Notes under the pieces: generated by a model
Seen by the model: only the letters and a program-made list of their open reading frames with translations
Told to the model about the DNA's origin: nothing
The model's database searches: none
Part shown: positions 4,269-26,488 of the stretch, one piece after another
Layout of the letters: each line of letters opens with the position of its first letter
Position numbering within the stretch: the first letter of the stretch is position 1
Translations under genes and position numbers: made by a program
DNA from: Gynuella sp.
Lineage (GTDB): Bacteria > Pseudomonadota > Gammaproteobacteria > Pseudomonadales > Natronospirillaceae
DNA length: 32,000 nt
Direction of reading: 5' to 3'
Assembly: GCA_028282465.1 (NCBI GenBank)
Contig: JANQHX010000021.1
Location: 2,437 to 34,436, forward strand

Positions 4269-4278
4269 GGAGGTAACC

Positions 4279-5337: not shown

Positions 5338-5360
5338 AACTTGGTCTTTAGCTTGAGAGA

Positions 5361-5387: not shown

Positions 5388-5402
5388 TTCGGTTTCTAAT
5401 GA

Positions 5403-7782: not shown

Positions 7783-7799
7783 AGATTAAATAGATAAAG

Positions 7800-8886: not shown

Positions 8887-11091
8887 ATGTTAAAAAAAAT
8901 TCTGCGTAATCATCAAGCGGTTGTACTTGGGTTACTATTTACTGCCTTAACCTGTTGGTGGCAGTTGCATAATGACCCCCGCGAGCCGTCATTTCTAAAC
9001 CGTCTGGATTACATCCTCTACGACTGGCGGCTTAACTCCACTGGCTTTGCCAACAAACACCCTGACCACAATATTCTTATTGTAGACATAGACGAACGCA
9101 GTCTTAAGGTAGAAGGGCAGTGGCCCTGGGCCAGAACCAAGGTTGCAAAGCTGGTGCAGAAACTCTCAGAGCAAGGGGCCATTGTAGTCTCCTTCGACGT
9201 ACTGTTTTCTGAGCCAGAGCAGCATCCCTTGGAATTTATCTCTAATCTGGCTGAAGCCGAACCAGAGCTGTTAGCTCAATTAGAACAGTTTCGACAACAA
9301 TCAGATGGCGACCAACTGCTGGCACAAGCCTTTCAGCAAATGGACGTAGTACTAAGCTATTTACTCAGAGAAGAGCCAAACACAGTGGGTGCCCTGGGTC
9401 CCATTGTGGAAGAAATGACGGCAGAGCTCTCCAGCCGGAGCATTCTTCTCAAGGCTAATGGCTACACCGGCAATATTCCATTACTGGCCGACAGCGCTAT
9501 TTCCAGCGGCTTTTTTAACCCCACCCCCGACCCAGATGGGGTGATTCGCAGCGTGCCTTTGGTGTGGCGAATAGGTGATAAGGTGTATCCGTCACTAGCG
9601 CTGGCAACTGCCATGACCTATCTGTTTCAGGATGAAATCCATATAAAAAGAGTGGCGGTCGGCGACTTGGATTTTGTCGAAGGCATTCAATTTACCAAAA
9701 AGCTTATTAAAACCGACTCTCAAGCCAGGGTGATTGTGCCCTACATAGGCCCCAGAGATTCCTACACCTATGTGTCGGCCACCGATGTCTTAAATGACCA
9801 GGTGGATCTCTCTATTATGGAAAACGCCGTGGTAATGGTGGGCACCACAGCAGTGGGGTTATTCGATCTGAGAACCACACCGGTGGGCACTGAATACCCA
9901 GGAGTAGAAGTGCACGCCAATGTAGTGAATGCTCTTATGTCTGGTGATTTTCCCTATGCCCCAGATTGGAGTGACGCTGCAGTATTTGTTTTTCTATTAC
10001 TCATCGGCATTATTTTCTCTTTTGTGTTGCCAAAGTTTGGCCCAGTGGTGTTATTTTTATTTTCAGTGTTTGTACTGGTGATTTTAATCATCACCAATTT
10101 TTGGCTCTGGCAAGAACATAAACTGGCCTTGCCGCTAGCCAGCAGTTTAATTCTGTTATTTACCCTCAGCGTCATCAATTTAGTCGAAGGTTTTTGGCGT
10201 TCTACCCAAAGCCGAAGAGAAGTCACCGAAATGTTTGGCCAGTACGTGCCCCGAGCTCATATTGACCATATGCTAGAAGCGCCAGATGACTATGGTTTTG
10301 ACGGCGAAAGTAAAGAGCTCACAGTGTTGTTTTCTGACATTAGAAGCTTCACCACCATTTCTGAAAAGCTGTCGGCCATTGAATTAAAATCCTTATTAAA
10401 TCGCTACTTCACTCCCATTACCGAAATTATTTTTAATAACCGAGGCACCATCGACAAATACGTCGGCGACATGGTGATGGCATTTTGGGGCGCACCTTTA
10501 GACGATGAAAATCATGCCGAAAACGCTCTAAAAGCCACCATGGAAATGCTCGAAAAAATAGAAGCCTTAAAACCCGAATTTGTGGCAGACGGCTTACCAG
10601 AAGTGAATGTGGGTATTGGTTTAAATACCGGCCCCATGAACGTAGGCGATATGGGTTCAAACTTTCGCCGGGCTTATACCGTGTTAGGTGACGCTGTTAA
10701 TCTTGGTTCAAGATTAGAAAGCCTAACTAAATTTTACGGCGTGCAATGTTTAGTAGGGCCAGACACCAAAGACCTATGCCCCAATTATGCATTTCGCTTT
10801 GTAGATAAAATAATAGTGAAAGGCAAAGACGAACCCATTCAAGCCTGGGAGCCTTTGTGCCTAGAAAAAGATTTATCAGAAGATTGGCAAACCGAACTTA
10901 AACAATTTGAACAAGCCTATGAAAACTATGCTAACCAAAACTGGCAAGATGCTATTGAGCAACTGACACAATTAACAACCACTAGCCCAAGGCCATTTTT
11001 GTATCAAGTTTATTTAGACCGCATTGAAAGTTTAAAAGCACAAGACCTGCCTGAAGATTGGGATGGCACTTTTAGGCATACTTCGAAATAA
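8887..11091 (+). CDS. CHASE2 sensor domain-containing adenylate/guanylate cyclase (class III)
   Basis: N-terminal TM, a periplasmic region of about 330 aa, then a cluster of TM helices (residues ~360-440). A class III cyclase domain follows (LTVLFSDIRSFTTISE, YVGDMVMAFWGAP, GIGLNTGPMNVGDMGS, YTVLGDAVNLGSRLES). Confidence 0.85.
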   Translation: MLKKILRNHQAVVLGLLFTALTCWWQLHNDPREPSFLNRLDYILYDWRLNSTGFANKHPDHNILIVDIDERSLKVEGQWPWARTKVAKLVQKLSEQGAIVVSFDVLFSEPEQHPLEFISNLAEAEPELLAQLEQFRQQSDGDQLLAQAFQQMDVVLSYLLREEPNTVGALGPIVEEMTAELSSRSILLKANGYTGNIPLLADSAISSGFFNPTPDPDGVIRSVPLVWRIGDKVYPSLALATAMTYLFQDEIHIKRVAVGDLDFVEGIQFTKKLIKTDSQARVIVPYIGPRDSYTYVSATDVLNDQVDLSIMENAVVMVGTTAVGLFDLRTTPVGTEYPGVEVHANVVNALMSGDFPYAPDWSDAAVFVFLLLIGIIFSFVLPKFGPVVLFLFSVFVLVILIITNFWLWQEHKLALPLASSLILLFTLSVINLVEGFWRSTQSRREVTEMFGQYVPRAHIDHMLEAPDDYGFDGESKELTVLFSDIRSFTTISEKLSAIELKSLLNRYFTPITEIIFNNRGTIDKYVGDMVMAFWGAPLDDENHAENALKATMEMLEKIEALKPEFVADGLPEVNVGIGLNTGPMNVGDMGSNFRRAYTVLGDAVNLGSRLESLTKFYGVQCLVGPDTKDLCPNYAFRFVDKIIVKGKDEPIQAWEPLCLEKDLSEDWQTELKQFEQAYENYANQNWQDAIEQLTQLTTTSPRPFLYQVYLDRIESLKAQDLPEDWDGTFRHTSK

Positions 11092-11099
11092 ATAGTTCT

Positions 11100-14039
11100 T
11101 TAAGATTCATAGCGTGTTTCTATCAGTTTTCCTTTTAGATTGCTCAAATAGACTTGGTAGTATGACTCCATAAGTTCAGCTAGTTTTTCATATTCGTCAT
11201 TGCGTCCAAGTTGATAGCCCGCAGCAAAGTTTACAAAGTCCAGGTCTTTTAATTGCTGAACCATCACCTGATCAAGAAAATCAAACCATCCTTTGATTGA
11301 AGCCGATACCTCACAAGAGAAAGCATCGAACATTTCTTTGGCAGAATTAAATCCTATTCGGACATAATTGTTTCCAATTATTTGAAAAACGCCCATGCTT
11401 GTTGCTTGGTATGCCGCTTCTTCGTTAAGGCTACGGGCGAATTCAAATACCTCCCATTCTTTTCGTTGTTGACCATGAAAGTACTTCCAGTCTTCCTCAA
11501 CAGTTTTTCTCCATTTATGGCCTAACCAAACCTTGCTTGAGTCGTATTGAAAATGTTGGTTATATAAATCAGTGTTTGTTTTACCCCAATATTTCCAAAA
11601 TAAGTGATTTTCAAAACGTATTTTTAAACGATCTGAGTTGGTTTTATCTAGCTCTTCATCGTTAGATATCGAGCACAAAACAGCGAGGATGCAGCCTAAA
11701 TCAATTGCTGTTTTATTGCTGATTTGGAATATGAGTTTGCCGTATTTATCCCAGATAGAAGTCAGCTTGTTTATTTTATCCTTGTCCACAAAATCAGATT
11801 TTATTTCAGCAGGTTTAACCCGACTATTTTTGCCGATAGTAACTGTTAGTTTTCTTGGCCGACCCTGTTCATCCACGTTGTTTTCATCCCATTCCGCAAT
11901 GGAATCTTCATTGCCAAGGTTTTCCCAGATTTCCTTAAACATCATTAACGGGAAAATTCTGTCGTTTGTGTCTTTGCCCCAGAGCCACTTATACAATCGT
12001 GGGTCGGCTGGGTATTGGTTGCCGGGTTGGCCGGTTGAGTTGCTTCTTGCGAAGCCGGGTTGGTTTTCTGAGCAAATTATTTGGGTGTGGTATGCAGCCT
12101 CATTTTCAACCCACTCTTCAACAATGGCCGGGCCTTCCAAATCCTTGTAAAAAGTTTTTAAACACTTGCCAGTGGCTAGATCCCAGAGCTTGAGAGTGTT
12201 ATCAGTGCTTCCGGAAATGAATCGCTGGTCATCCACCATCGCCGCGCTGGTAACCGGGCCTCCATGGCCCACAAAGGTTTGTAAACAATTCCCGGTGGCC
12301 AGATCCCAGAGCTTGAGGGTGCGATCATCGCTTGCGGAAATGGCCCCCTGGTCATCCACCACCGCCACGCTGTTGATCCCGCTCCCATGGCCCACAAAGG
12401 TTTGTAAACACTGCCCAGAGGCCAGATCCCAGAATTTAAGAGTGTTATCATAGCTTCCGGAAATGGCCCGCTGGTCGCCCACCACCGCCACGCTGGTGAC
12501 CGATAGTTGATGGCCCTCAAAGGTTTGTAAACATTGAGCGGAGGCCTGATCCCAGAGCTTGAGGGTGTTATCCCAGCTGGCGGAAATAACCCGCTGGTCA
12601 TCCACCACCGCCAGACTGTTGACCGAGTGTTGATGGCCCTCAAAGGTTTGTAAGCACTGTCCGGAGGCCAGATCCCAGAGCTTGAACGTGTGATCATCGC
12701 TGGCGGAAATGACCCGCCGGTTATCCACCGCCACGCTGCTGACCCAGTCTTCATGGCCCTCAAAGGTTTTTAAACACTGTCCGGAGGCCAGCTCGAAGAG
12801 CTTGAGTGTTCTGTCATAACTGCTGGAAATAACCCGTTGGTGATCCACCACTACCACGCTGCTGACCCAGTTTTCATGGCCCTCAAAGGTTTGTAAGCAC
12901 TGTCCGGAGGCCAGATCCCAGAGCTTGAGGGTGTGATCACCACTGGCGGAAATGACCCGCTGGTCATCCACCACCGCCACGTTGGTGACCCAGTTTTCAT
13001 CCTCAAAGGTTTGTAAGCACTGTCCGGAAGCCAGATCCCAGAGCTTGAGAGTCTTATCACGGCTTGTGGAAATGACCCGCTGGTTATCTACCACCGCCAT
13101 GCTAGTGACCGAGCCTTGATGGCCCTCAAAGGTTTGTAAACACTGCCGGGAGGCCAGATCCCAGAGCTTGAGGTTAGCACGGCTTGCGGAAATGACCCGC
13201 TGGTCATCTACCACCGCCACGCTTGTAACCAGACCTCCATGGCCCTTAAAGGTTTGTAAACAATTGCCGGTGGCCAGATCCCAGAGCTTAAGGGTCTTAT
13301 CACGGCTTGCGGAAATGACCCGCTGGTCATCCACCACCGCCACGTTGGTGACTGGGCTTTTATGGCCCTCAAAGGTTTGTAAGCACTGTCCGGAGGCCAG
13401 CTCCCAGAGCGTGAGGGTCTTATCACGGCTTGCGGAAATGACCCGCTGGTCATCCACCACCGCCACGCTGCTGACCCAGTTTTCATCCTCAAAGGTTTGT
13501 AAGCACTGTCCGGATGCCAGATCCCATATCTTTAGAGTGTTATCATCGCTTCCGGAAATGACCCGCTGGTCATCCACCACCGCCACGCTGGTGACCGAGT
13601 CTCGATGGCCCTCAAAGGTTTGTAAACACTGCCGGGAGGCGAGATCCCAGAGCTTGAGGGTGTAATCATCGCTGGCGGAAATGACCTTCTGGTGATCCAC
13701 CACAGCTACGCTGGTGATCGAGGCTTGATGGCCAAGCCTAGTTAGACTTGGCAGCGATGTTTTTAGGTTAGCTGGGGTGTGCCATGGCACTCGCGTTTTT
13801 GATGTTGTGGAGTCACTTTCATTAAACCGAGCAAAATAATGCTCGGAGTAGGCCAGCGGTGTGCCCTCAAGGTTTGCCGGTGTTAAATCAAGCCCGCGAA
13901 TATAAGAACCGCTTAGATCCAGCTTGGAATAGTCCAATGTCTCAGCTCCAACAGTTGCTAAGCCGATAGGCTGAGCAGATTTGTATTCCGGGTTTATTTT
14001 TTTAACTAAAAGAGAAAGCGCCTGTGCGGTTTTATCCAT
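11100..14039 (-). CDS. WD40-repeat (13 blades) protein fused to a C-terminal DUF3380/N-acetylmuramidase-like domain
   Basis: 979 aa with no signal peptide. Residues 103-631 form 13 tandem 40/41-aa WD units (GHxxxVxSVAVVDDQRVISASxDxTLKLWDLASGQCLQTFE). Residues ~760-979 carry IRFENH, WLGHKWR, FHGQQRKEWEVF and SMGVFQIIG, about 50% identical by eye to the C-terminus of the 16202..17542 product. The ATG at 14039 overlaps the upstream KAP gene stop by 8 nt. Confidence 0.85.
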   Translation of the reverse strand: MDKTAQALSLLVKKINPEYKSAQPIGLATVGAETLDYSKLDLSGSYIRGLDLTPANLEGTPLAYSEHYFARFNESDSTTSKTRVPWHTPANLKTSLPSLTRLGHQASITSVAVVDHQKVISASDDYTLKLWDLASRQCLQTFEGHRDSVTSVAVVDDQRVISGSDDNTLKIWDLASGQCLQTFEDENWVSSVAVVDDQRVISASRDKTLTLWELASGQCLQTFEGHKSPVTNVAVVDDQRVISASRDKTLKLWDLATGNCLQTFKGHGGLVTSVAVVDDQRVISASRANLKLWDLASRQCLQTFEGHQGSVTSMAVVDNQRVISTSRDKTLKLWDLASGQCLQTFEDENWVTNVAVVDDQRVISASGDHTLKLWDLASGQCLQTFEGHENWVSSVVVVDHQRVISSSYDRTLKLFELASGQCLKTFEGHEDWVSSVAVDNRRVISASDDHTFKLWDLASGQCLQTFEGHQHSVNSLAVVDDQRVISASWDNTLKLWDQASAQCLQTFEGHQLSVTSVAVVGDQRAISGSYDNTLKFWDLASGQCLQTFVGHGSGINSVAVVDDQGAISASDDRTLKLWDLATGNCLQTFVGHGGPVTSAAMVDDQRFISGSTDNTLKLWDLATGKCLKTFYKDLEGPAIVEEWVENEAAYHTQIICSENQPGFARSNSTGQPGNQYPADPRLYKWLWGKDTNDRIFPLMMFKEIWENLGNEDSIAEWDENNVDEQGRPRKLTVTIGKNSRVKPAEIKSDFVDKDKINKLTSIWDKYGKLIFQISNKTAIDLGCILAVLCSISNDEELDKTNSDRLKIRFENHLFWKYWGKTNTDLYNQHFQYDSSKVWLGHKWRKTVEEDWKYFHGQQRKEWEVFEFARSLNEEAAYQATSMGVFQIIGNNYVRIGFNSAKEMFDAFSCEVSASIKGWFDFLDQVMVQQLKDLDFVNFAAGYQLGRNDEYEKLAELMESYYQVYLSNLKGKLIETRYES
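12147..13733 (-). repeat. Intragenic tandem repeat array (13 units of 120/123 bp) encoding the WD40 blades
   Basis: The motif AGATCCCAGAGCTTGA (or close variants) recurs near 12178, 12300, 12423, 12546, 12669, 12789, 12912, 13032, 13155, 13275, 13398, 13518 and 13641. An exact 42-nt duplicate occurs at 12987-13028 and 13473-13514. Confidence 0.9.
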
Positions 14040-15981
14040 GGTTACTATCCACTAATTGCTCTCCTAAATTTTGTATTCGCTCTAACACCCTGGTTGTTTT
14101 ATAAAATTCTGTCAGTTGAATGGCTGAAGTAATATCGGCTAAGTCTTCTAGCCATTCAATATCGGTAACCAGGGTTTCATTTGAAGTCATATATTCTTCA
14201 GACCTAAATAGCTCTAGCCATTCATGAAAAACTGGGTCTGGTAACTTTTTATGGCGCCATTCTTGTCGCCTAATAAAATCTCTTCTTGAACTTATGTCTG
14301 GCAGCATAAAACCACTTTGTAGCTCCCCCAGATCAACATTCGAAATAGTTTCTAAGTGGTCTTCATTAATGATTTGAACAGGAGCTTTATGCTTTTGAGT
14401 TTCAATAGCTTGATTTTTTAAATACAGGGCCTCGAATTGGTTTAAAGCTTCATCATCAGTAATAGGGTTAGATTTAATTTCATTACCGTGAAAGGCTGCA
14501 AGTGGGTCTATGCTGTAGCGGTTTCGTTTGGATTCACGGAGTAAGTTTTTAAACTGATGCCAAGCCAGTTGATATTCACTGACGGTTATTGGGCTGGTTG
14601 GATTCTGAGTGCCTTCCAAAGCCTCTTTATTACTTTTATCCACCTCTTCAACGATTGTCTGGGCCTCGAATCTATAACTCATTTTGCATTCAAACAACCA
14701 GTTGTATACCACTTCATTAGACCTGAGCAGGCGATATAAGCTGGAGAATTGCTGTTCTAAAATAGTAATTCTGGCTAGATGTTCTAAGTGCTGGTCATGC
14801 TGGTTAATAAATTCTTTGCCGCCTTCTAGGTTTTGAATGGTATCTCGCTTGAGTTGTATGGCTTCTGCGGCTCGAATAAGTTTTCTAGGTACAGGTGGAA
14901 TGGCTTGGTTAAATAAATTCAATAAGGGTAGATTTAATTTAGTTTCTGCATGTTTATCCTCTGGTTGTTCGTCTTGGCGATCATCTATTTGACTAGCTTT
15001 TTGGGCATCTTCTGCTTTTTCTTCAACTACAAAAAGGCTTGGGTAATGTTCAATTAAATAAGCTTGGGTTTGGTTTTGTGACCACCTAGGCAAATGAATA
15101 GGAATATGAACAATCTTTTCTAAATACTCTGCGCCGGTAATAGGTGGGCTGATATTGGAGTCTCGGTCTTTTTCTAAAAAGTAGTCTTTGTATCTATGGT
15201 TAATGCCTCGTTCAACCACTTCGTCGTCTACGGCTAGCACAAAGGCAAAATTATTAATATTTAAAAATAGTTTGATGGATTCAAGCATTTGTACTGCGTT
15301 ATCTGGCAGGCATCTGTCCAAGTCATCTACAAGTACAATAATTCTAATTTTGAGTTTATCGTCGTCAGGTGATTGGGTGAGTTGTTCAAGTGATTCAAAG
15401 GTACCGTAATACATGGACTCCATCTTTTTAGTCGCTTCATTTTTCTTAGCGTCAGAAGCTGCCGCTGATTCTAGGCTGTCTTTGCCACTGAATTTGATGA
15501 CACCAAAATCAAAACTCAAACCAGTTGCGACAGATCTCGTTAAATCAGCAATGGTTTCACCGGTTTTTATTAGCAAGGATTTAAGTTGGTCAGTAACAGC
15601 CCTTGTTAATGTCAAGGCATGGCTTTCGATCTTGCTTTGATACTTTTCTAACTGGTTTTCAATGGTTTTTAACAGAGGAATGATTAAAAAGTCTTCCTGC
15701 TCGTATTTCCAAGGGGAGAAAAACACAGGAATATTGATATGCTTTATCGAGTTGTCTTCAGTATTTGAGTCTTGCCAGATTAAATTTTCAGATTTGGAGT
15801 AGTGTTTTTCAATCTGTCTTAGGTGCCAGGTTTTACCTATGCCCCATTCACCATAAACAGACACCACCAATGCTTCACCACTGGCTTTGTGGGGAAAACT
15901 GGTATTAATAACATCACAAATGTTACTGACGATTTCGCTAGAAACATCACTGGAAACGTTAGCGGTATCCGAAACGGGCAT
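14032..15981 (-). CDS. KAP-family P-loop NTPase (soluble form)
   Basis: Walker A is VYGEWGIGKT. It is followed by FFSPWKYE, and the Walker B region is IIVLVDDLDRCLPDNAVQMLESIKLFL..FAFVLAVDDE. This is the hallmark KAP arrangement. No TM insertion is seen. A helical C-terminal region of about 330 aa has unknown function. Confidence 0.8.
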   Translation of the reverse strand: MPVSDTANVSSDVSSEIVSNICDVINTSFPHKASGEALVVSVYGEWGIGKTWHLRQIEKHYSKSENLIWQDSNTEDNSIKHINIPVFFSPWKYEQEDFLIIPLLKTIENQLEKYQSKIESHALTLTRAVTDQLKSLLIKTGETIADLTRSVATGLSFDFGVIKFSGKDSLESAAASDAKKNEATKKMESMYYGTFESLEQLTQSPDDDKLKIRIIVLVDDLDRCLPDNAVQMLESIKLFLNINNFAFVLAVDDEVVERGINHRYKDYFLEKDRDSNISPPITGAEYLEKIVHIPIHLPRWSQNQTQAYLIEHYPSLFVVEEKAEDAQKASQIDDRQDEQPEDKHAETKLNLPLLNLFNQAIPPVPRKLIRAAEAIQLKRDTIQNLEGGKEFINQHDQHLEHLARITILEQQFSSLYRLLRSNEVVYNWLFECKMSYRFEAQTIVEEVDKSNKEALEGTQNPTSPITVSEYQLAWHQFKNLLRESKRNRYSIDPLAAFHGNEIKSNPITDDEALNQFEALYLKNQAIETQKHKAPVQIINEDHLETISNVDLGELQSGFMLPDISSRRDFIRRQEWRHKKLPDPVFHEWLELFRSEEYMTSNETLVTDIEWLEDLADITSAIQLTEFYKTTRVLERIQNLGEQLVDSNHG

Positions 15982-19502: not shown

Positions 19503-20015
19503 TCAGGATTTGACAGCGAACATTTGTCCATCAGGTGCCACTGAAACCATCACCAGTTTTATATTTGATTCACTATTTGAGTCCCAGCCCAATAGCAAAG
19601 TATCGTCTTCACTTAATTGAATGTGCTCTTGATTATTTGGGCAGGGGATTACTAGTTTTGCAAATACCTGAACCATTCTTTCTGGTGATTCATTGTCTAC
19701 AACCAATAAATACTTCTGGCCATAGTGCACGCCTTGGCACACGGCGGCTTCGCCTTTAACAAGTGCAACCCCATTTATTTTAACCTGTGACTCAAACTGG
19801 TTAACTGAAGGTCTAATCCAGTTTTCTGTAATGGGTGCTGAAGCCGTTAAAATTGCGAGGGCGAGATTTCCATACATGTAATGTCGGATAGAAAAAAGTA
19901 CCGATGGTTTTGGAGACTTTTTCTGGGTTTCTTGACTTAGTAACTTAAAAGAAAGAAGTGATAATAAGAATACCAAGCCTGGTAATCCTAGTTTTAAGAT
20001 TTCGATAATATCCAT
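19503..20015 (-). CDS. Hypothetical membrane protein
   Basis: 170 aa. A strong RBS AAGGAGG lies upstream of the ATG. There are two N-terminal hydrophobic segments. I recognise no family. Confidence 0.5.
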   Translation of the reverse strand: MDIIEILKLGLPGLVFLLSLLSFKLLSQETQKKSPKPSVLFSIRHYMYGNLALAILTASAPITENWIRPSVNQFESQVKINGVALVKGEAAVCQGVHYGQKYLLVVDNESPERMVQVFAKLVIPCPNNQEHIQLSEDDTLLLGWDSNSESNIKLVMVSVAPDGQMFAVKS

Positions 20016-20274: not shown

Positions 20275-20952
20275 TTAGTCTCGTCTTACTCGAATCAGTA
20301 TTCGTCGGTTCTGAGTTCTGCGTTCTTCAACAGGAATGGTTTCGTCTGTGACCTTGGGGCGCGAATCAGCATAGCCAGAAGCTTTCATTTGCATTGGGTC
20401 TAAGCCCTGTTCTTGAAAATACTTCACTATGTTTGTGGCGCGATTGGAACTGAGCTCCCAGTTGGAATCGTATTTCTCATTGTGAATGGGAACATCATCT
20501 GTATGACCTTCAATTTCGACAATGTAATAACCTTGAAGATTGTTCGAAACCACTTTCGCTACATCATTCAACAGAGGTAATGCCTGTGGTTGTATATCGG
20601 CACTGCCAGAATCGTAAAGCGGAAAGTTAGTAAACTCCAGTAATACGCCTTTGTCATCAATGGTGACATTTGCAAACTGTTCCAGATCTCGAGTTTCGAT
20701 AACGGATTGCCAACCCGCTTCGATATCTCGCAATGGAGTTTGAACCTTTGTGTTGCTGATGGCTTCAGCTAAGCCTTCTTTTAACGCTTCAATTTTGCCT
20801 TGATTTAAATCTGAGACGCTCATGATCATGACAAAAAAAGCAAGCAACAAAGTGATCACATCGGAATAGGTCACTAACCAACTGTCTTGCTCTCCTTCAC
20901 CCCCTAGCCTTGGCCGACGTCGCTCTGCTCCAGGCCGTGTGCGAAGATTCAT
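20275..20952 (-). CDS. MotB/PomB-like stator subunit with OmpA-type peptidoglycan-binding domain
   Basis: The TM segment WLVTYSDVITLLLAFFVMIMSV contains the conserved channel Asp. The C-terminal OmpA-like motifs are IEGHTDDVPI, SNWELSSNRATNIVKYF and NRRILIRV. The start codon directly abuts the upstream stop (TAAATG). Confidence 0.85.
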   Translation of the reverse strand: MNLRTRPGAERRRPRLGGEGEQDSWLVTYSDVITLLLAFFVMIMSVSDLNQGKIEALKEGLAEAISNTKVQTPLRDIEAGWQSVIETRDLEQFANVTIDDKGVLLEFTNFPLYDSGSADIQPQALPLLNDVAKVVSNNLQGYYIVEIEGHTDDVPIHNEKYDSNWELSSNRATNIVKYFQEQGLDPMQMKASGYADSRPKVTDETIPVEERRTQNRRILIRVRRD

Positions 20953-21750
20953 TTAAGATTGCTCGCTTGCCATGTCGTAGTAGGCTTTGGGGTTAATTAA
21001 TGCGTTAAGTCGGTCTTGTATGGTGAGGGCGTCGGCCTTTTCCATCATGAATACAAACCCGTCACACCAGAGTTGATGCCGTAAATATTCCCCTTCCATT
21101 TTTTTAAAAATATGAACGGCGGCAGGTCTGAAAATCAACTGAGCCAGCATGACGCCATAGAGAGTGGTGATTAAGGCCAACGCAAGACCTTTGCCTAAGG
21201 CAGTTATGTCCCCATCCATGTTATCTAACATGATGATTAAGCCGATGATAGTACCAACCATACCAAAGGCCGGTGAGTAACTAGCCATGGTGTGTAACAC
21301 TTTTGCCGATTGAGTTCTTCGAGAAAAATCCGCTTCAATGCGGTTAGATATTAAATAGCGAATCTCTTTAGAATCATAGCCCGCAGTTATTTGTTCTAAA
21401 CAATAAGTTAGAAACTCGTTCTTTTTTTCTTTGTTGGTAAGGGAATTTGAAACCGCTGTGAGACCTTGTTGTCGATAGATTTGGCTCCATTCAATAAAAC
21501 GTTTGATGTCTGACCTCAGGGTGCTGTGGTTGTCGCGCTCTTCACTGAAAGTTCGAAAAAGAGCAAAAATAGCGGTGACAAACTCCTTCATGTTGTAACT
21601 AATAATGGTCGCCGCTGCTGTTCCACCCAACACCATAGCAACACTGGTGGGGCTAATAAAAATAATGAAGTTATCGGTATTCGAGGTGATCGCATAAAAG
21701 AATAATGCGATGGCACCTATGATGCCGATGAGTGTGCTAATAAATGTCAT
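20953..21750 (-). CDS. MotA/PomA-like proton/sodium channel stator subunit
   Basis: 265 aa with four TM segments in the MotA/PomA arrangement (two N-terminal, a cytoplasmic loop, two C-terminal). It carries YSPAFGMVGTIIGLI and ALITTLYGVMLAQLIF. It has an ATGA overlap with the upstream gene. Confidence 0.85.
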   Translation of the reverse strand: MTFISTLIGIIGAIALFFYAITSNTDNFIIFISPTSVAMVLGGTAAATIISYNMKEFVTAIFALFRTFSEERDNHSTLRSDIKRFIEWSQIYRQQGLTAVSNSLTNKEKKNEFLTYCLEQITAGYDSKEIRYLISNRIEADFSRRTQSAKVLHTMASYSPAFGMVGTIIGLIIMLDNMDGDITALGKGLALALITTLYGVMLAQLIFRPAAVHIFKKMEGEYLRHQLWCDGFVFMMEKADALTIQDRLNALINPKAYYDMASEQS

Positions 21751-23687
21751 TCAATGGTTGCCAAATCTTGCATACTGAATTTACCGGTTTTTATTAATTC
21801 ACGAATATGGTGAACAATGGTACGACGAGATTGCTCAACGAGGTTATCGTCCGGTTGAGAGTCTGTGTATTGAAGTTGATCTTGTACCGCAGCTCGTACC
21901 TTTGAAGGCAGTGCTTCTAGAATATATTTCACTAACTGCGGGTTGGCATTTGCGAGCGCCGAGGTCAATTGCTTTCTGTCTACTTCCCGAAGAATTTCAC
22001 CTAGAATTTCAGGTGGTGTTCTGCCTAGATCATTAAAGGTGTAGTAAACCTGTCGTAAGCGATAATAGGTTTCTGGTGAGTCCTGCTTAATTCGGTCTAG
22101 CAACTGATGCTCGTCAGAAGAGGGTAAGTTGTCGAGCATATCAATCAACAGAGCGGTGCCATCGGTATTGAGGTTTTCAAAGCTAGGCACGTTTAAAGAT
22201 TTTTTGGCAAGTCTGTCTGCGACATCTCTAAACGTGGCAATGGGAAATTCATTAAATTGTCCAATTTCGTAAGCAATTTGGCCCTGCTGTGCCGGTGCTA
22301 AATGTTTTAGCAAAGCCGCAGCCCGTGTGGCAGAGACTTGAGACAGTACCAAGGCTTTGATTCTGGGTTCTTCATCTTGCAGAAGGTAAACAATTTGGCC
22401 ATCAGCCAGTCGATCTAAAAATTTAAATGGCTTAGAAGGATGATGCTCCGGAAAGGATGCCTGATCTCGTAGTAATACATGCCTTAGTGCGGTTAACTCG
22501 GAGTGAACTTCATCTGGTGTTAATTGGTTTTGTTCCAGAAATTGAGTGATCTCATAAATCTGTCCAGTGCTGATGGACGGGAATAAGCCTCTGAACAGAG
22601 AGCCCCCTAGAGTCTGGTAGGCGGATGCTAGGGTTTTTAAATAGTTACCACCCAATAGTAAATCTTCAACCCGTCCACTGGCCCGTTCTGGATTACCAAG
22701 GCCAGCGGTAATAATTTCTTGTTTTAGAGATCGGATGTCGGCAACCACTGGTGCTTCAGAGGTTTCGTTGCTGATAGCACTAGGTACGCTAATGGGCGCC
22801 TGGTTTACTGTTGAGTCTGGCGGTAGTGTATATTTAGGCTTTCTAAAAATGAGGATCAGCAACAGTAAAAAAATAGACGCCGCAAAAGCCAGTGCAACCC
22901 AAGGTACCCAAGTTTGCTGCCACCAGTTTAACTCTTCGCTAGTACTATTGGGGTCCAGCGCTTCCGGCATTCTGGTGTCTGGTTCGCTGTTCAATTCATC
23001 AGAAATGGATTCAAAAGGCGTTTTTACCAGAACAAGGCGGTCACCACGAAAGTAATTCAGTTTCAGCTTACTCTCTAAAAGTGTTCTGACAAATTCTTCC
23101 TGAGAGAGACTAATGGTTTCGTCAATTAATATGGTTACCACCAGGTTTTCTATTCTGGAGAAAATGTCCTGACTAGTTTCCAGTATTTCTTCAACGGGCT
23201 CGCCGCTGTCTTCAAAATTAACAAGACTTTCCCGCATGGATTTTAAACTTTCCAGTACCGGTGAATCCGTGGGTGCTGGTACTTCAACGGATGCATCTTC
23301 ACCAAAGGGTAATCCTGGTAGTTGAATGCTTTCTGGCGTGGAGGATTGTTGTTGTTCCAGCGTCTTTTGTTCTAGTTCCTCGATAAGAGCATTGAGGTTT
23401 TGTAATTTTTGTTCTTGAGCTGGGCTTAAAATATAGTCAGGTGCCGCTTTTGGAATGGTACCTCGCAACCGTTGAATACGGGCATCAATATTGATGATGA
23501 AACGATCATTACCCAAGTAGGCTCGAAGGTCTCTGGTAATTCGGTTTTCCATCTGCCCGATGAATTCCATTTCTGTCATCACGTCTTGTTCAGCAGAAAT
23601 GAACTCGTCAACACTCCAAGCTTTGGCGCTTAGCAAAACCAACAAACTGACGCTGACCCATAAAAAGTATTTGTTCATGTTCATCAT
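21747..23687 (-). CDS. Bitopic membrane protein: periplasmic N-terminal half, TM, and FliG-like (middle + C-terminal domain) cytoplasmic half
   Basis: It has a signal/anchor (YFLWVSVSLLVLLSAKAW), an acidic periplasmic region of about 230 aa, and a TM at residues ~256-281 followed by RKPK. Residues ~420-640 show FliG-type motifs: IVYLLQDEEPRIKALVLSQVSATRAAALLKHLAPAQQGQIAYEI (compare LLxxEHPQxxAxxLSxL), VYYTFNDL (compare MFxFxDL) and ILREVDRKQLTSALANA..LPSKVRAAV. Similarity was judged by eye only. Confidence 0.65.
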   Translation of the reverse strand: MMNMNKYFLWVSVSLLVLLSAKAWSVDEFISAEQDVMTEMEFIGQMENRITRDLRAYLGNDRFIINIDARIQRLRGTIPKAAPDYILSPAQEQKLQNLNALIEELEQKTLEQQQSSTPESIQLPGLPFGEDASVEVPAPTDSPVLESLKSMRESLVNFEDSGEPVEEILETSQDIFSRIENLVVTILIDETISLSQEEFVRTLLESKLKLNYFRGDRLVLVKTPFESISDELNSEPDTRMPEALDPNSTSEELNWWQQTWVPWVALAFAASIFLLLLILIFRKPKYTLPPDSTVNQAPISVPSAISNETSEAPVVADIRSLKQEIITAGLGNPERASGRVEDLLLGGNYLKTLASAYQTLGGSLFRGLFPSISTGQIYEITQFLEQNQLTPDEVHSELTALRHVLLRDQASFPEHHPSKPFKFLDRLADGQIVYLLQDEEPRIKALVLSQVSATRAAALLKHLAPAQQGQIAYEIGQFNEFPIATFRDVADRLAKKSLNVPSFENLNTDGTALLIDMLDNLPSSDEHQLLDRIKQDSPETYYRLRQVYYTFNDLGRTPPEILGEILREVDRKQLTSALANANPQLVKYILEALPSKVRAAVQDQLQYTDSQPDDNLVEQSRRTIVHHIRELIKTGKFSMQDLATIE

Positions 23688-24443
23688 TTAGTTAAATAGA
23701 ACTTCCAGACCCTTTCGAACATCTTCCATGTTGGGATCAATTTCTAATGCTTGTTCCCAAGCCGTTTTGGCTTCTTCTCTGCGGCCCATTTTGTAATAAA
23801 TACTGCCCTTTAAGGCATAGGCCAGTGCAAATTCAGGCTGTTGATTGATTGCCTGTAATGTCGCGTTCAATGCACCTAGATAGTCTCGCCGGTAAAACAG
23901 TTGTTGTGCCAATACAATACTGTCGTTAGCAGTCATTCCTGACGATGGCGTCGGGTTTAATGTTGTCTCGGTAATGCCATCTGCATTGGTTGTTTCATCA
24001 ATAGGTAACTCGCGATTACTTGAATTTGGTTGTTCATTCTCTCCCATATCCATGGACTTCAGTTTTTCTGCAACTGCACCTAATGGATCATCAGTCTCTT
24101 CCGATTCAGGTAAGTCCATAACAAAGGCAACGTTTTCTTCGCCAGTATCTAGAATTAAGGAGATGTTATAACCCGGACCATGACGGTCTATGGTGATGAC
24201 TCCGAAGTCATCCTTGCCTCTCTGGTTGAGCTGGGTGGGTTCAATTGGCGAATTCGCTTGTAGAATTTGCGATTCTGTGGGGCTAGTTAATTCAGTGTTT
24301 GCGCTGCTATCGCTAATGGTGACGTCTTCGGTTTTAGACGTTTGTTCAGAAGCCGATGTGCCGTTGTTTTGTCCAAACATGGAACAGGCTGATATCAAAA
24401 ACATGGATGTCATTGTCAGCAAAAAAGGAGTCAGTCTTCTCAT
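23688..24443 (-). CDS. TPR-repeat lipoprotein
   Basis: The preferred start is ATG 24443 (MRRLTPFLLTMTSMFLISACS, lipobox ISAC), which overlaps the upstream stop by 1 nt (TAATG). The track start at 24524 would overlap the upstream gene by 82 nt. A Ser/Thr/Glu-rich linker is followed by C-terminal TPR units (YALKGSIYYKMGRREEAKTAWEQALEIDPN). Confidence 0.7.
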   Translation of the reverse strand: MRRLTPFLLTMTSMFLISACSMFGQNNGTSASEQTSKTEDVTISDSSANTELTSPTESQILQANSPIEPTQLNQRGKDDFGVITIDRHGPGYNISLILDTGEENVAFVMDLPESEETDDPLGAVAEKLKSMDMGENEQPNSSNRELPIDETTNADGITETTLNPTPSSGMTANDSIVLAQQLFYRRDYLGALNATLQAINQQPEFALAYALKGSIYYKMGRREEAKTAWEQALEIDPNMEDVRKGLEVLFN

Positions 24444-25543
24444 TAGAATCGATACCCCAAAGTAATGTCGTAACTTGCCCCGCCAAATTCTGAAGATTCT
24501 TCTAGGCCATCTACTTCTTTCCATTCCACTTCTTGTTCAGGTAAATAAATAACACCTAAATCAATGTAGCCGTTTCTTGTAAAAGGAAATTCGATTCCGT
24601 ATTTGTAGACGAGAGATTGTTGTTCTTTAAAAAATGCCTGGCCCAGTTCCAAATACATGAGTGTTGGCACCCATTGCTCCAACGCGGATATATTAACTTC
24701 CACTCGGCCTTCAATAACAAAGCCCAGCATGTCGAAATAATCTGTTTGGGCAAGATTTGAAAAAGTTTCGAAACCAAGACCATAACTAATGTCTTCGTTG
24801 AGTTCTGAATGCTCTCTGCGTCTAATACCGAATGTGGTCACGCTTGATAATTGACGGTCAGAAACGCCAGTGCCTTCTCGTTCTGCACTGAATCCCCATG
24901 CTCCTACAAATAATTCCCAGTCGACTCGGTCAAACTCTTCTTCATTCAGTTCTTCGTCCCGTTTAGCTAATTCGATTGGGTTTGTTTTTCTAGCGTATTG
25001 CCGAGTCCAAACAACATGGTTATCTGTGGCATCAACCAGTCTCATGTCGACAGTAAATTTTTCTTCATACACATTTGCGCTCCACATAAAAAACCCATCC
25101 ACTTGAAGCTTTCTGGCTAGGTTGCGCATGTCTTTGTTACTTTCTATCGCTTGATTAATACTGAGTTGATCGTTTTGAAGTTTTACTTGAATCAATTTGC
25201 ATTCAACACACTCGGTGACCAAAAACTTTTCGGTATCAATCAACTTTTTAATGATCATGCCTTCGATCATGGTTTCTGTTGACTTAGGTATTTTTTTATA
25301 AAGTCTGTCTTCTGTGTGATACAAGGCTACTCGCATCACAGGTATTTCCAAATCCGCAAGCTCTTGCACAGGTAGTGTGTTTTCATCTTCCATGAGTTCT
25401 GCAAACCCGTTGTAGTAACGAGCCTGTGTTTCCACCAAATTACTGGTCTGCCCAGTTTCAGCCTGAACATAGTTCAAAGTAGAAAATAAAATTGTTACCC
25501 ATGTGGCAAAAAATTGCCGCTCGAGACTGGCTTCAGCCTGCAT
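24443..25543 (-). CDS. Putative secreted/outer-membrane protein (first gene of the stator-rotor operon)
   Basis: The N-terminal hydrophobic segment ends in VQA-E. The C-terminal half has alternating aromatic/hydrophilic patterns and ends GYRF, the terminal Phe typical of beta-barrel OMPs. I recognise no family. Confidence 0.45.
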   Translation of the reverse strand: MQAEASLERQFFATWVTILFSTLNYVQAETGQTSNLVETQARYYNGFAELMEDENTLPVQELADLEIPVMRVALYHTEDRLYKKIPKSTETMIEGMIIKKLIDTEKFLVTECVECKLIQVKLQNDQLSINQAIESNKDMRNLARKLQVDGFFMWSANVYEEKFTVDMRLVDATDNHVVWTRQYARKTNPIELAKRDEELNEEEFDRVDWELFVGAWGFSAEREGTGVSDRQLSSVTTFGIRRREHSELNEDISYGLGFETFSNLAQTDYFDMLGFVIEGRVEVNISALEQWVPTLMYLELGQAFFKEQQSLVYKYGIEFPFTRNGYIDLGVIYLPEQEVEWKEVDGLEESSEFGGASYDITLGYRF

Positions 25544-25699
25544 TGATTGATTCCATATAAAATTTGTGACCTGTTTTTACAGAATAGAACAGAGCTTGAG
25601 GAATGCATGAAAAATGCGTTTTGAAACCAACGAGAATTTCGAAAAGTTTAAAGTTGTAATATCACTGGTGGACTGCACAGGATGTACTAGTTTCATGTT

Positions 25700-26488
25700 A
25701 TGCAGATATTACCTAAAAACTCTGTCTACCGATCTTTAGGGCAGCACCCCTTGATATTGTTGGATAGACCAGAGCATCAAAAACATGACGCCTATGTGTT
25801 TCTTGTTGATAACATCTCCAGAGCCTTGGAAAACCATCCCGTGATCAATGGAGATGCGCTCCCTAAATGGCTGAGTGACGAAAATTCCACCGGGCAACAG
25901 GTGGAGTACTTGATTTTGCAAATGGTCATCTTCTTCAACTTACTTTATTTGTCTGAGAAAACGGGCCGTAAAGCAGAATCGGATAAGTTGTTTATGGATT
26001 TGGCGCACCTGACCTCTGTTCCTGAAAGTCATAACCTATCTGTGTTGAGAGGCTTTTTTCAGTTTGTTCATGAATACGTGAGGTCGTTAAGAATTCCCTT
26101 TGGCCCACTATTAAGGTCAGTGCCTGTGGATCCAATTACGGATTTTGTGAGTTCAGAACTGACTCATCGGCTGTTAAATGGTGCCCCAAGTAGCAGATTG
26201 GCATCGCGCTTTGCACTAGAGAGTTGGTTGGTTTCAGGTTTTTGGGATGAGTTAGCTTCGTCTTTAATGGCTTATAAAAATCAGCTTGATCTGAATTTAA
26301 TGCCGATTAGCTATTTTTCTAGCCCAACTGGCTCTTTTACCCCACCTTGTATCCCACTGGTAGCCGAGATTTACTTTCAATGTGGCATTCATGAAGATCG
26401 GTTTTTGGCGGATGTGGTGTCGACATTGGATTGCATTGATGATTTTTGGAGTTCAATAGGGCGAAAGACACTTTATGCACAGAAATGA
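25700..26488 (+). CDS. Hypothetical protein
   Basis: 262-aa ORF transcribed divergently from the stator-rotor operon. It appears mostly helical. I recognise no family. Confidence 0.45.
   Translation: MQILPKNSVYRSLGQHPLILLDRPEHQKHDAYVFLVDNISRALENHPVINGDALPKWLSDENSTGQQVEYLILQMVIFFNLLYLSEKTGRKAESDKLFMDLAHLTSVPESHNLSVLRGFFQFVHEYVRSLRIPFGPLLRSVPVDPITDFVSSELTHRLLNGAPSSRLASRFALESWLVSGFWDELASSLMAYKNQLDLNLMPISYFSSPTGSFTPPCIPLVAEIYFQCGIHEDRFLADVVSTLDCIDDFWSSIGRKTLYAQK
26473..26481 (+). promoter_or_regulatory. DnaA box (TTATGCACA)
   Basis: Perfect match to the consensus TTATNCACA. It is followed by GAAA, as are the two TTATCCACA boxes downstream. Confidence 0.55.

Follow-up and report, generated by a model that had tools for sequence, protein, structure and literature searches.

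What kind of machine is encoded when genes for a flagellar-type stator sit beside a gene for a FliG-like protein and two genes for exported proteins, away from all other flagellar genes? Such a group occupies positions 20275-25543 of the window, as we call the whole 32-kb stretch of Gynuella sp. DNA analysed here. Five translationally coupled genes, all on the minus strand (to which every feature coordinate below refers), were confirmed there as open reading frames, and no flagellar genes besides them were found anywhere in the window. The original prediction had described five genes with zero or negative spacing between non-flagellar flanks, and it was borne out in both respects, with the four minus-strand junctions reading exactly as given: TAATG at 24441-24445 (genes 1 and 2), TAAATG at 23685-23690 (genes 2 and 3), ATGA at 21747-21750 (genes 3 and 4), and TAAATG at 20950-20955 (genes 4 and 5).

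A candidate promoter or operator element, CTGTTCTATTCTGT (25579..25592), precedes the start of gene 1 by 49 nt. Agreeing with CTGAACTAWGCTGA at 10/14 positions, it is a degenerate version of a motif that related loci carry at this offset; a scan of upstream regions placed that motif at -49 to -53, with 0-2 mismatches, in 12 of 23 (10 species-level loci plus near-duplicate contigs). At ≤2 mismatches this motif has only 19 matches in 1.38 Mb with both strands scanned. As the window copy is weak, the regulatory role of CTGTTCTATTCTGT is proposed tentatively.

A flagellar-type stator and a natural FliF-FliG fusion

Genes 4 and 5 encode a flagellar-type (PomAB-like) MotA/MotB stator, as shown by comparison of sequences and structures and in agreement with the subunit types originally proposed; the Pfam matches to MotA_ExbB, MotB_plug, and OmpA, like those to FliG_M, FliG_C, and TPR reported below, all lie above the curated cut-offs. 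Gene 4 (20953..21750) specifies a MotA/PomA-type A subunit of 265 aa with four transmembrane helices (MotA_ExbB 9.4e-23), for which the best NCBIfam models are PomA (1.5e-41) and MotP (6e-40), against 1.7e-4 for TolQ and 2e-3 for ExbB; in the PDB it matches C. sporogenes MotA (3.6e-31) and PomA (1.6e-28). Gene 5 (20275..20952) specifies a MotB/PomB-type B subunit of 225 aa, made up of a transmembrane helix, a plug helix (MotB_plug 1.9e-15), and an OmpA-like peptidoglycan-binding domain (OmpA 1.4e-18), with MotD, MotB-family, and MotS as best NCBIfam models, every one below its own cut-off. The channel aspartate ascribed to MotB is present as D31 in YSDVITLLLAFF (window 20860-20862) and is invariant in 23 family members. 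On the MotA side, the equivalent of PomA R88 (E. coli R90) is invariant in the family, and most members have Glu at the position of PomA E96 (E. coli E98), where the MotA of the window has Ser.

Gene 3 (21747..23687; 646 aa) is shown by Pfam, an AF2 model, and Foldseek to be naturally fused: an RBM3-only FliF is joined through a transmembrane helix to a full-length FliG comprising the N, M, and C domains. It had been described as a FliG-like membrane protein; the FliG motifs hold in Pfam, in a PDB sequence search (1lkv, E 7e-17), and in Foldseek (FliG 1e-8), while the identity of the N-terminal half as FliF RBM3 had been missed. The AF2 model is of moderate quality only (pLDDT 65.7, pTM 0.31). 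The periplasmic ring-building motif 3 (residues 32-223; 23019..23594), delimited by model, profile, and Foldseek, is modelled as helix, long strand, insertion, long strand, helix, and strand; the insertion comprises two helices and an invariant LPGLP at 123-127, and the region contains the RGDRLVLVKTPF motif. PF08345 (YscJ_FliF_C) matches full-length in relatives (P0009, residues 58-229, E 5.4e-9), Salmonella FliF 234-442 ranks first, collinearly, when the RBM3 family profile is compared with the PDB (E 0.027), and a series of FliF RBM3/S-ring structures is matched by Foldseek at probability 1.00. Transmembrane helix 2 (residues 254-281, WVPWVALAFAASIFLLLLILIF; 22845..22928), a hydrophobic stretch that is helical in the model, connects this periplasmic ring domain with the cytoplasmic FliG part.

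The FliG N-domain-like region (residues about 341-420; 22428..22667) was recognised by Foldseek and by alignment to an unfused FliG of 324 aa from a distant locus, L036, residues 11-317 of which align with residues 341-642 of the fusion (blastp E 9e-28; family profile E 1e-41). Foldseek aligned 309-351 columns to full-length FliG structures, and a profile of the N-domain-like region alone found no match among PDB sequences. In the middle domain (residues 431-500; 22188..22397; FliG_M 2.7e-15), alignment to T. maritima FliG shows the FliM-binding motif EHPQR changed to EEPR (439-442), with Glu replacing the motif's final Arg. The C-terminal domain (residues 532-638; 21774..22094; FliG_C 2.1e-20, also found by Foldseek) carries the torque helix LPSKVRAAVQDQLQ (residues 593-606; 21870-21911), and its C-terminal subdomain superimposes on 1qc7 with an rmsd of 1.5 Å and on 8ucs_H, a FliG bound to the MotAB stator, with 1.6 Å. 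At the position of E. coli R281, K/R is invariant in all members, and every member keeps at least one acidic residue of the D288/D289 pair; the equivalents of K264 and R297, two of the five classical FliG charges, are not conserved. Given this loss and the Ser in MotA, the rotor-stator interface may work differently.

Being a FliF-FliG fusion, the gene 3 product is therefore proposed to be a complete minimal rotor subunit. Engineered FliF-FliG fusions are reported to form rings. A natural single-chain FliF-FliG is also found in Chlamydiaceae, where it has two transmembrane segments and builds no flagellum (Bergeron 2016, PMC4768692). That protein, of about 330 aa, has RBM2, an RBM-like domain, and the M region only of FliG, has no MotAB as a partner, and is believed to act together with the type III injectisome (PMC4768692), whereas in gene 3 RBM3 is combined with all three FliG domains (N, M, C), and genes for a stator and two outer-membrane proteins always accompany it.

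Two outer-membrane-anchored partners

Genes 1 and 2 are likewise shown, by sequence and structure comparison, to encode proteins anchored in the outer membrane; the first has a ring-prone domain of the FlgO/LpoB/PelC fold, the second TPRs. Gene 1 (24443..25543; 366 aa) had been taken for an exported beta-barrel protein, and it indeed has a signal peptide and a modelled C-terminal 8-stranded barrel of the OmpA/OmpX/NspA kind (residues 206-365) ending in LGYRF; the model has an overall pLDDT of 77.7, rising to about 90 in the barrel, for which Foldseek returned NspA (5.5e-7) as well as Ail, OmpX, and OmpA. Its periplasmic alpha/beta domain (about residues 65-186) has the LpoB/TolB-N/PelC/GNA1162 fold (LpoB 3.5e-5, PelC 8.8e-4; also TolB and GNA1162) and a weak similarity to FlgO, the Pfam model of which matches 24 of 27 family members, at best with E 1.2e-4, below the cut-off. 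All 40 homologues of gene 1 are annotated as hypothetical.

Gene 2 (23688..24443; 251 aa, counted from the ATG overlapping the stop codon of gene 1) agrees with its earlier description as a TPR lipoprotein, having a LISA-C lipobox and a C-terminal TPR pair (TPR_2 1.1e-9, TPR_1 6e-8). A small central domain is conserved (KxxxGxxxIxRxGxGY...LDxGDxxVxFxMxLP), and the lipobox Cys is kept in all Oceanospirillales-type members and missing in Aliivibrio.

The combination of FlgO/FlgP-type outer-membrane-anchored proteins and TPR/Sel1 proteins around a PomAB-type stator recalls the Vibrio H-ring and T-ring and the Campylobacter PflAB/FlgP scaffolds. V. cholerae FlgO is an outer-membrane-anchored alpha/beta ring subunit, MotC/MotK are TPR proteins acting on MotB, and MotX is a Sel1 protein; a Sel1 protein is additionally encoded in two distant versions of the module (L032 and L033). 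Unlike in those scaffolds, the FlgO-like domain, itself a match below the Pfam cut-off, is anchored by an 8-stranded barrel rather than by lipid, and the module has no FlgT, FlgP, MotX, MotY, or LP-rings to build on.

Conservation of the five-gene module

All 30 related loci examined, among them Oleispira, Thalassolituus, Bermanella, Marinicellulosiphila, and Aliivibrio fischeri, carry these five genes, with tight or overlapping junctions; as their order is identical throughout, the arrangement is not due to chance. The flanks vary between lineages. No flagellar genes adjoin the module in the loci where flanks were covered, namely L001-L007 (by precomputed Pfam annotation), the window, and L030, the remaining loci having been covered for five-gene order only; nowhere among the annotated or inspected flanks was the module contiguous with a secondary flagellar gene set, the arrangement that would have made it a displaced piece of one.

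The 30 core loci have all five reading frames intact, and dN/dS of 0.02-0.12 at unsaturated dS indicates purifying selection on every one of the five genes. In distant relatives, at 22-28% identity, the FliFG fusion and the TPR lipoprotein are kept (gene 2 homologues in L031-L033, E 1e-23 to 1e-42) and MotAB is kept in most, L033 and L035 lacking adjacent MotAB. In L036 a FliF-like protein and FliG are unfused, next to MotAB, and align with the fusion (E 1.4e-15 and 1e-41). A Wza-Wzc-Wzy export locus directly follows the module in L032 and a PorP/SprF-type barrel gene follows it in L035, both being single cases absent from the 30 core loci.

That only a subset of flagellar parts is present, and that mutants of A. 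fischeri ES114 in motA2 and motB2, the stator genes of its module, swim normally in soft agar, could suggest a decaying remnant of a lost second (e.g., lateral) flagellar system with no present function. Such an origin is strongly disfavoured by the intact frames, a split MotA in L034 being the sole such case among distant loci, by the low dN/dS, by the invariance of catalytic and interface residues (the MotB channel Asp, the MotA R88 equivalent, and K/R at the FliG R281 position), and by a partner set maintained down to 22% identity; nor would a remnant have acquired a fused gene and two outer-membrane partners of its own. Even less probable is a Zorya-like anti-phage defence whose MotAB-like sensor would pass a signal on to effectors. 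ZorB models do match MotB (E 3e-22), as ZorB is a MotB homologue, yet MotA matches ZorA at only 2e-4 (against 1.5e-41 for PomA) and at 265 aa has no long ZorA tail, no counterpart of ZorC, ZorD, or ZorE is present, and PADLOC matches none of the remaining three proteins. The chromosomal position is also stable within the Thalassolituus/Oleispira-type loci examined, and a plasmid collection contains no match to the fusion protein of A. fischeri.

A putative motor apart from the flagellum

All named hosts that could be checked are flagellated, Oleispira and A. fischeri polarly so, and a link between module and flagellum is therefore conceivable. The module might serve the ordinary polar flagellum with accessory or alternative parts: MotA2B2 as a second stator used conditionally, additional rotor subunits, and additional outer-membrane parts resembling the H-ring. 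These would join the motor at, for instance, high viscosity or low Na+, on surfaces, or in the host. The flagellar (PomA/MotP-like) rather than TolQ/ExbB type of its stator, the weakly FlgO-like domain of gene 1, the "two stator systems" of the Oleispira genome paper, and the roughly two-fold fall of motA2/motB2 together with fliA under RscS overexpression in A. fischeri all fit this explanation. We nevertheless consider it unlikely: motA2 and motB2 are dispensable for soft-agar swimming and, not being FlrA-activated, lie outside the FlrA flagellar regulon; EHPQR, the motif for FliM binding, is gone from gene 3; co-assembly into the MS-ring is doubtful for a fusion without RBM1/RBM2 and with a different RBM3 insertion; and the module, with no flagellar genes adjoining it where flanks were covered, travels with its own rotor, including the unfused pair in L036.

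Like Tol-Pal, ExbBD-TonB, GldLM, AglRQS-Glt, and Zorya, the module would send energy from an ion-driven inner-membrane stator towards the periplasm and outer membrane. It might be an energiser of the Tol-Pal, TonB, or gliding type, in which no closed ring rotates continuously and the FliF-FliG protein relays conformational or linear work from the stator to its outer-membrane partners, with polysaccharide export, surface motility, or envelope maintenance as possible outputs. Two dedicated outer-membrane proteins that are always co-encoded, the TolB-N/PelC fold in gene 1, and the export and barrel genes after the L032 and L035 modules are in line with such a role. It is rather improbable all the same, since a ring-building RBM3 and conserved torque-helix charges point to flagellar rotor-stator geometry; the suggestive neighbours are isolated cases, and no TolA/TonB-like extended protein is encoded. 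The stator belongs to the flagellar (FIT-like) and not the TolQ/ExbB branch, and its partner is a FliG ring protein, in contrast to TolA, TonB, GldM, GltG/J, and ZorC/D in other 5:2 systems.

Features in common with the flagellar motor core are FliF RBM3; all three FliG domains (N/M/C), including the charged torque helix; the conserved Arg of a PomA-like MotA; and the channel Asp, plug, and OmpA-like anchor of MotB. The module differs in the absence of FliF RBM1/RBM2, the fusion of FliF to FliG, the loss of EHPQR, and the lack of FliM/FliN, export gate, rod, hook, filament, LP-ring, and chemotaxis genes. We put at roughly 60% the probability that the operon encodes a non-flagellar envelope module, rotary (or torque-transducing) and autonomous, that descends from the flagellar motor core. 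In such a module, RBM3 domains would oligomerise into an S-ring-like ring in the periplasm, placing a ring of FliG C-domains beneath the inner membrane, and peptidoglycan-anchored MotA5B2-type units, conducting probably Na+ or H+, would push on the conserved charged torque helix and turn the ring. With neither a FliM-binding motif nor a FliM/FliN gene, the ring should be switchless, and with no export-gate, rod, hook, or filament genes, nothing would be propelled outside the cell.

Of the "self-contained ion-driven machine" first envisaged, the parts stand, a stator and its FliG partner; that they make up a working machine reaching the outer membrane is what we infer from them. The component set, as anticipated, matched none of the named systems tested or found in the literature, and no description of the five-gene module was found there; it looks like an undescribed motor. 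Its outer-membrane proteins may form a periplasmic stator or bearing scaffold, like the H/T-rings or PflAB/FlgP of high-torque flagellar motors, or may be the link that passes work to the outer membrane. Free rotation of a ring attached to partners anchored in the outer membrane would require these partners to move along with the ring or to serve as its bearing.

Organisation and surroundings of the operon

Five consecutive minus-strand open reading frames occupy positions 20275-25543, exactly where the original prediction had placed them, and encode an outer-membrane protein (OMP; gene 1, 24443-25543), a TPR lipoprotein (gene 2, 23688-24443, in a frame open to 24524), a FliF-FliG fusion of 646 aa (gene 3, 21747-23687), a MotA-like protein (gene 4, 20953-21750) and a MotB-like protein (gene 5, 20275-20952). 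As had been claimed, all four coding-strand junctions (TAATG, TAAATG, ATGA and TAAATG) overlap or abut. The identities proposed for the MotB-like, MotA-like, FliG-like and TPR products are borne out by Pfam matches above the curated cut-offs (MotB_plug and OmpA, MotA_ExbB, FliG_M and FliG_C, and TPR, respectively), and the reported absence of nearby flagellar genes holds for all of the window's other 18 sizeable ORFs.

No RNA genes were detected in the window with Rfam or by tRNA scanning, shuffled sequence scored equally well in a sigma-70 promoter and terminator scan of the window, and no sigma-28 or sigma-54 consensus was present upstream of gene 1 at the 23 loci searched. A 14-nt motif, CTGAACTAWGCTGA, lies at a fixed offset of -49 to -53 from the first gene in Oleispira/Thalassolituus-type loci; it occurs ~50 nt 5' of gene 1 in L011-L017, L021, L022, L024, L029 and L006, all related loci with the same gene order, and a copy matching at 10 of 14 positions is found at the same offset in the window (25579-25592, minus strand). 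This motif is probably the -10 region or an operator.

The two adjacent ORFs, one of 170 aa downstream (19503-20015) and a divergent one of 262 aa upstream (25700-26488), were rejected as members of the module: neither contains a Pfam domain, and neither has a counterpart next to the module at any other locus. Further away, the gene for a KAP-family P-loop NTPase (649 aa) overlaps with the beginning of one encoding a 979-aa WD40-repeat protein (11100-15981), and the G+C content of the WD40 gene region, 53-55% against ~42% in the remaining window, suggests horizontal acquisition. Upstream of this region lie genes for a CHASE2-sensor adenylate/guanylate cyclase (734 aa; 8887-11091) and a 676-aa leucine-rich-repeat protein (5403-7433), and positions 781-5337 hold four genes for an ABC ATPase, an ABC-2 permease, an ABC_transp_aux protein with DUF7088 and a DUF4340 protein; the gliding protein GldG is a member of the ABC_transp_aux family.

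A FliF-FliG fusion with its own stator

The product of gene 3 had been described as a FliG-like membrane protein. Its FliG part stands in Pfam, PDB and Foldseek comparisons, and the description can be sharpened: the protein unites a FliF consisting of RBM3 alone with a FliG that has all of its N, M and C domains, because its family is matched by the relevant domain (PF08345) and structures, and because the two halves, encoded separately in a distant locus, map side by side onto the fusion. PF08345, the FliF C-terminal RBM3 domain, is found in several homologues (11 of 35 diverse members, best E 6e-13); in one of them, P0009, it is matched over its full length (1-147 of 147, residues 58-229, E 5.4e-9), and the window's own protein scores below threshold. 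PF01514 (RBM1-RBM2, SctJ-like) was matched in no fusion member tested. In the family alignment, invariant RBM-type motifs flank a variable insertion containing an invariant LPGLP; one of these motifs, ...RGDxLxIxxTxF, is similar to RGDTLNVVNSPF of Salmonella FliF. The AlphaFold model (pLDDT 65.7) runs helix, long strand, insertion, long strand, helix and strand, with a transmembrane helix (254-281) after RBM3 and then an all-helical cytoplasmic part. Many FliF RBM3/S-ring structures were among the Foldseek matches, with a probability of 1.00, and a profile of the periplasmic part had as its top PDB match Salmonella FliF 234-442, collinear and weak (E 0.027).

The separately encoded halves come from L036, a JGI metagenome locus whose positions 2454-14267 encode three TPR proteins, MotA, MotB, a FliF-like protein, FliG, a DUF1848 protein and a 905-aa TPR protein, with other flagellar genes absent from this interval. 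Here the 525-aa FliF-like protein (PF08345 only) and the 324-aa FliG stand beside MotAB and correspond to positions 42-246 (E 1.4e-15) and 344-647 (E 1e-41) of the fusion. The L036 FliF-like protein has a long coiled-coil-like segment before its transmembrane helix. In real flagella RBM1 and RBM2 hold the type III export gate; the periplasmic part of the fusion comprises only ~200 residues, and export-gate genes are absent nearby.

For the FliG half of the window's fusion, Pfam gave FliG_M at 2.7e-15 and FliG_C at 2.1e-20, and a PDB sequence search gave FliG 1lkv at E 7e-17. The Foldseek check proposed at the outset returned FliG M-C structures at 1e-8; full-length FliG structures aligned over 309-351 columns, and superposition of the C-terminal subdomain gave 1.5-1.6 A with both 1qc7 and the FliG of a stator-bound structure (8ucs_H). 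The armadillo-type N, M and C domains are all present, the cytoplasmic linker region having been assigned to FliG N through alignment to the unfused FliG of L036; a profile of that linker (A4) produced chance matches only against the PDB.

The core rotor-stator contacts cited in the literature are R90-D289 and E98-R281. When interface residues were read from a family alignment to T. maritima FliG, every Oceanospirillales-type member proved to have Lys at the E. coli R281 position, where Aliivibrio has Arg; at least one residue of the D288/D289 pair is acidic in every family member, and there is no conservation at K264 or R297. On the stator side, the Arg equivalent to PomA R88 and E. coli R90 is invariant (23 members), and the equivalent of PomA E96 and E. 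coli E98 is Glu in most members and Ser in the window. The window's MotA (20953-21750) has Ser/Asn around residues 100-103, where most of the family has this Glu, and in L008 and L009 the acidic residue is displaced by one position.

The EHPQR motif of the FliG M domain binds FliM. At this site the window has EEPR and the family as a whole E[ED]xR, with the final Arg changed to Glu and, in Aliivibrio, one further residue inserted; neither fliM nor fliN is present in the module. Interface and motif together predict a ring that could be pushed by a stator and, because the FliM-binding motif is altered and fliM and fliN are absent from the module, would be unable to switch.

The MotA-like protein has four transmembrane helices and a cytoplasmic loop with the conserved Arg. 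Its best matches are PomA, MotP and clostridial MotA (NCBIfam 1.5e-41; PDB 3.6e-31), with ZorA and TolQ/ExbB far behind (in NCBIfam, PomA 1.5e-41 vs TolQ 1.7e-4 and ExbB 2e-3), and it therefore belongs among the flagellar ion transporters as named by a recent survey. All NCBIfam equivalog cut-offs were missed, and because every such score is below its cut-off the module's stator is, as judged from sequence, a distinct subfamily. Prolines and threonines of TM3 and TM4 are conserved in MotA across 23 members. The threonines are those of PomA T158, T185 and T186, implicated in Na+ binding; this is compatible with Na+ coupling of the stator but no proof of it. In the MotB-like protein the channel Asp (D31 in the window) is invariant (23 members), and a plug and an OmpA-like peptidoglycan-binding domain are present.

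All 40 homologues of the gene 1 product are annotated as hypothetical, with no Pfam domain. Its model contains a confident 8-stranded barrel matching NspA, Ail, OmpX, OmpW and OmpA, and a periplasmic alpha/beta domain that in fold searches matches LpoB, the TolB N-domain, GNA1162 and PelC, which share this fold; a profile of the family found nothing in the PDB by sequence, so that the fold search alone was informative. FlgO (PF17680) is matched by 24 of 27 members, always below the cut-off (best E 1.2e-4), and is the sole, sub-threshold Pfam match of the window's protein. In V. cholerae, FlgO is an alpha/beta protein with a lipid anchor, 58 copies of which make up an outer-membrane ring of the H-ring. 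Whereas Vibrio FlgO has a lipid anchor and stands beside FlgP and FlgT, gene 1 encodes a barrel anchor and FlgP and FlgT are absent. The gene 2 product combines a conserved small central domain with a C-terminal TPR pair, and its lipobox Cys is present in all Oceanospirillales-type members and absent in Aliivibrio.

Conservation of the module and its occurrence in Aliivibrio fischeri

The five genes occur in the same order and with tight spacing in 30 of 30 loci fetched, from Oleispira, Thalassolituus, Oceanobacter, Bermanella, Bacterioplanoides, Marinicellulosiphila, Saccharospirillaceae/Pseudomonadales MAGs, A. fischeri and A. logei. Flanks vary by lineage, and no neighbour from the window accompanies the module elsewhere. 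Contiguity with a flagellar gene set, which would have marked the operon as a displaced flagellar fragment, was found in none of the flanks annotated or inspected. When A. fischeri is compared with A. logei, at dS 0.2-0.33, dN/dS for genes 1-5 is 0.095, 0.112, 0.116, 0.024 and 0.043; the module is under purifying selection, and the view that it is a decaying relic is disfavoured.

With a profile of the periplasmic domain, exhaustive searching yielded 107 representatives at 50% clustering, 37 of them at E <= 1e-10, and FliG_M plus FliG_C were detected in 25 of 35 long representatives. Six divergent loci (L031-L036), obtained by exact look-up of individual distant representatives, have as their constant core the FliF/FliG rotor and TPR proteins, adjoined by MotAB in most; the gene 2 family itself was confirmed in L031-L033. 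L031 and L034 carry an unrelated ~410-aa gene at the OMP position, followed by TPR, FliFG (the fusion), MotA, MotB and a ~470-aa gene. L032 reads Sel1/SPOR, MotA, MotB, OMP, TPR and FliFG, then a Wza-Wzc-Wzy locus; L033 reads TPR, a 422-aa protein, FliFG and Sel1, with adjacent MotAB absent; L035 reads a 354-aa protein, TPR, FliFG and a PorP/SprF-type barrel; and L036 has the unfused version with several TPR proteins.

Several features of these distant loci recur or stand out. A gene of ~470 aa follows the module in L035 (7303-8715), L031 (11807-13222) and L034 (12108-13517); its product matches TraF_2/PorP_SprF outer-membrane barrels in L035 and ends OMP-like (...GINVDF) in L031. Sel1-repeat proteins that are 30% identical accompany the module in L032 (3191-4663, with a SPOR domain) and L033 (10340-11746), and resemble in this the Sel1-type MotX of the Vibrio T-ring. 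In L032 (3191-16819), a Gammaproteobacteria MAG, the genes directly after the rearranged module encode a BBP2 barrel, Wza (Poly_export), a Wzc-like protein and Wzy; this single case might point to a connection with polysaccharide export. In L034, a metagenomic contig, MotA is split into two ORFs of 131 and 137 aa (10150-10939), reflecting either a frameshift or an assembly error, and the module is closely preceded by an IS1595 transposase.

In A. fischeri ES114 (locus L030) the module's stator genes are on chromosome II. They must be motA2 (VF_A0186) and motB2 (VF_A0187), because ES114 contains no more than two motAB pairs and the two tags belong to chromosome II; we infer the tags VF_A0183-0185 for the remaining genes, giving VF_A0183-VF_A0187 for the module. 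Brennan et al. (2013) found motA1 and motB1 mutants non-motile and motA2 and motB2 insertion mutants normal in soft agar, reported that FlrA, the flagellar master regulator, does not activate motA2B2, and noted that this pair was unique among the Vibrio genomes sequenced by then. Flagellar stators are required for rotation, whereas the A. fischeri orthologues are dispensable in soft agar, and in this model organism the module's stator pair is separate from the flagellar regulon. The module's stator has the features of a flagellar one (MotA with four transmembrane helices and the Arg; MotB with Asp, plug and OmpA-like domain); set beside the mutant and FlrA data, a role as a conditional accessory of the polar flagellum seems unlikely.

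Expression of motA2 and motB2 falls about two-fold upon RscS over-expression, according to the literature. Immediately upstream, ES114 has two OmpR-type two-component systems (L030:3338-8101). These candidate regulators of the module are not conserved in the other genera. TMAO-reductase-like genes, as read from translations, lie downstream. A plasmid search with the A. fischeri fusion protein gave no match. The literature searched does not mention VF_A0183-VF_A0185, a natural RBM3-FliG fusion or the module, which even in A. fischeri appears to have gone unnoticed so far. For Oleispira, the genome paper gives "two stator systems MotAB and PomAB", one of which may be the module.

A proposed minimal ring among stator-driven machines

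Flagellar FliG is soluble, belongs to the flagellar regulon and is needed for assembly and rotation; the FliG of the module, in contrast, is part of a membrane fusion whose gene has no adjoining flagellar genes where flanks were annotated or inspected. Likewise, flagellar FliF contains RBM1-RBM2 and RBM3, the module's FliF part RBM3 only. The known protein most like it is a short fusion of FliF and FliG from chlamydiae (PMC4768692). Unlike that injectisome-associated Chlamydiaceae protein of ~330 aa, with RBM2, an RBM-like domain and FliG M only, the module's fusion spans 580-780 aa, combines RBM3 with FliG N, M and C, and is encoded with MotAB. Engineered FliF-FliG fusions assemble rings.

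Among the machines powered by related stators, Zorya was rejected: ZorA matches at E 2e-4 over 110 residues of the 265-aa MotA, the long cytoplasmic tail is missing, the other three module proteins have no PADLOC match, and no ZorC/ZorD or ZorE effectors are present. A Zorya-like defence system is accordingly a disfavoured reading. Tol-Pal and ExbBD-TonB were rejected as well, with TolQ/ExbB scores far below PomA and no TolA/TonB-like gene in the module; a non-rotary energiser of the Tol/Ton kind, which would use the stator without turning a ring, is rather improbable, slightly more so than the flagellar accessory role; these two are the chief competitors of the reading favoured below. To our knowledge, FliG-MotA torque generation is known from flagella only, and every other 5:2 stator system that we know of (Tol, Ton, Gld, Agl, Zorya) has a different partner.

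Since all its parts come from known families, the module is a variant of stator-driven envelope machines. Its combination of a FliF-FliG rotor, its own flagellar-type stator and outer-membrane partners without a flagellum matches no described system. The original view of a self-contained stator and FliG-like machine unlike the named systems is supported and can be made more specific. We favour an autonomous stator-driven ring, with a probability of roughly 60%: the RBM3 domains would form a ring, peptidoglycan-anchored MotAB-type units would turn it via the FliG torque helix, and the two outer-membrane proteins might serve as scaffold or bearing, or as output link. Whether this switchless FliF(RBM3)-FliG ring, with a PomAB-type stator and dedicated outer-membrane proteins and independent of any flagellum, represents a class of minimal rotary nanomachine that had not been described before we regard as evenly balanced. 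That the module is conserved under purifying selection with no adjoining flagellar genes in flanks annotated or inspected, keeps the rotor-stator pair and has added outer-membrane partners suggests reuse of the motor core for another envelope task.

Annotations of these genes as "second flagellar stator" or "FliG" can be corrected on this basis. Consisting of a single protein and lacking both a switch and an export gate, the rotor is far simpler than a flagellum for structural and single-molecule study, and its presence in the genetically tractable A. fischeri ES114 makes deletion, imaging and symbiosis phenotypes directly testable. A survey of flagellar loss (PMC12199754) found rotor proteins in non-motile species and asked whether they have another function; the module offers a concrete candidate for such a use without a filament. 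If the autonomous ring is real, it would be the first natural flagellar rotor-stator core used other than for turning a filament, and would bear on how the motor core could exist usefully without export apparatus and axial structures.
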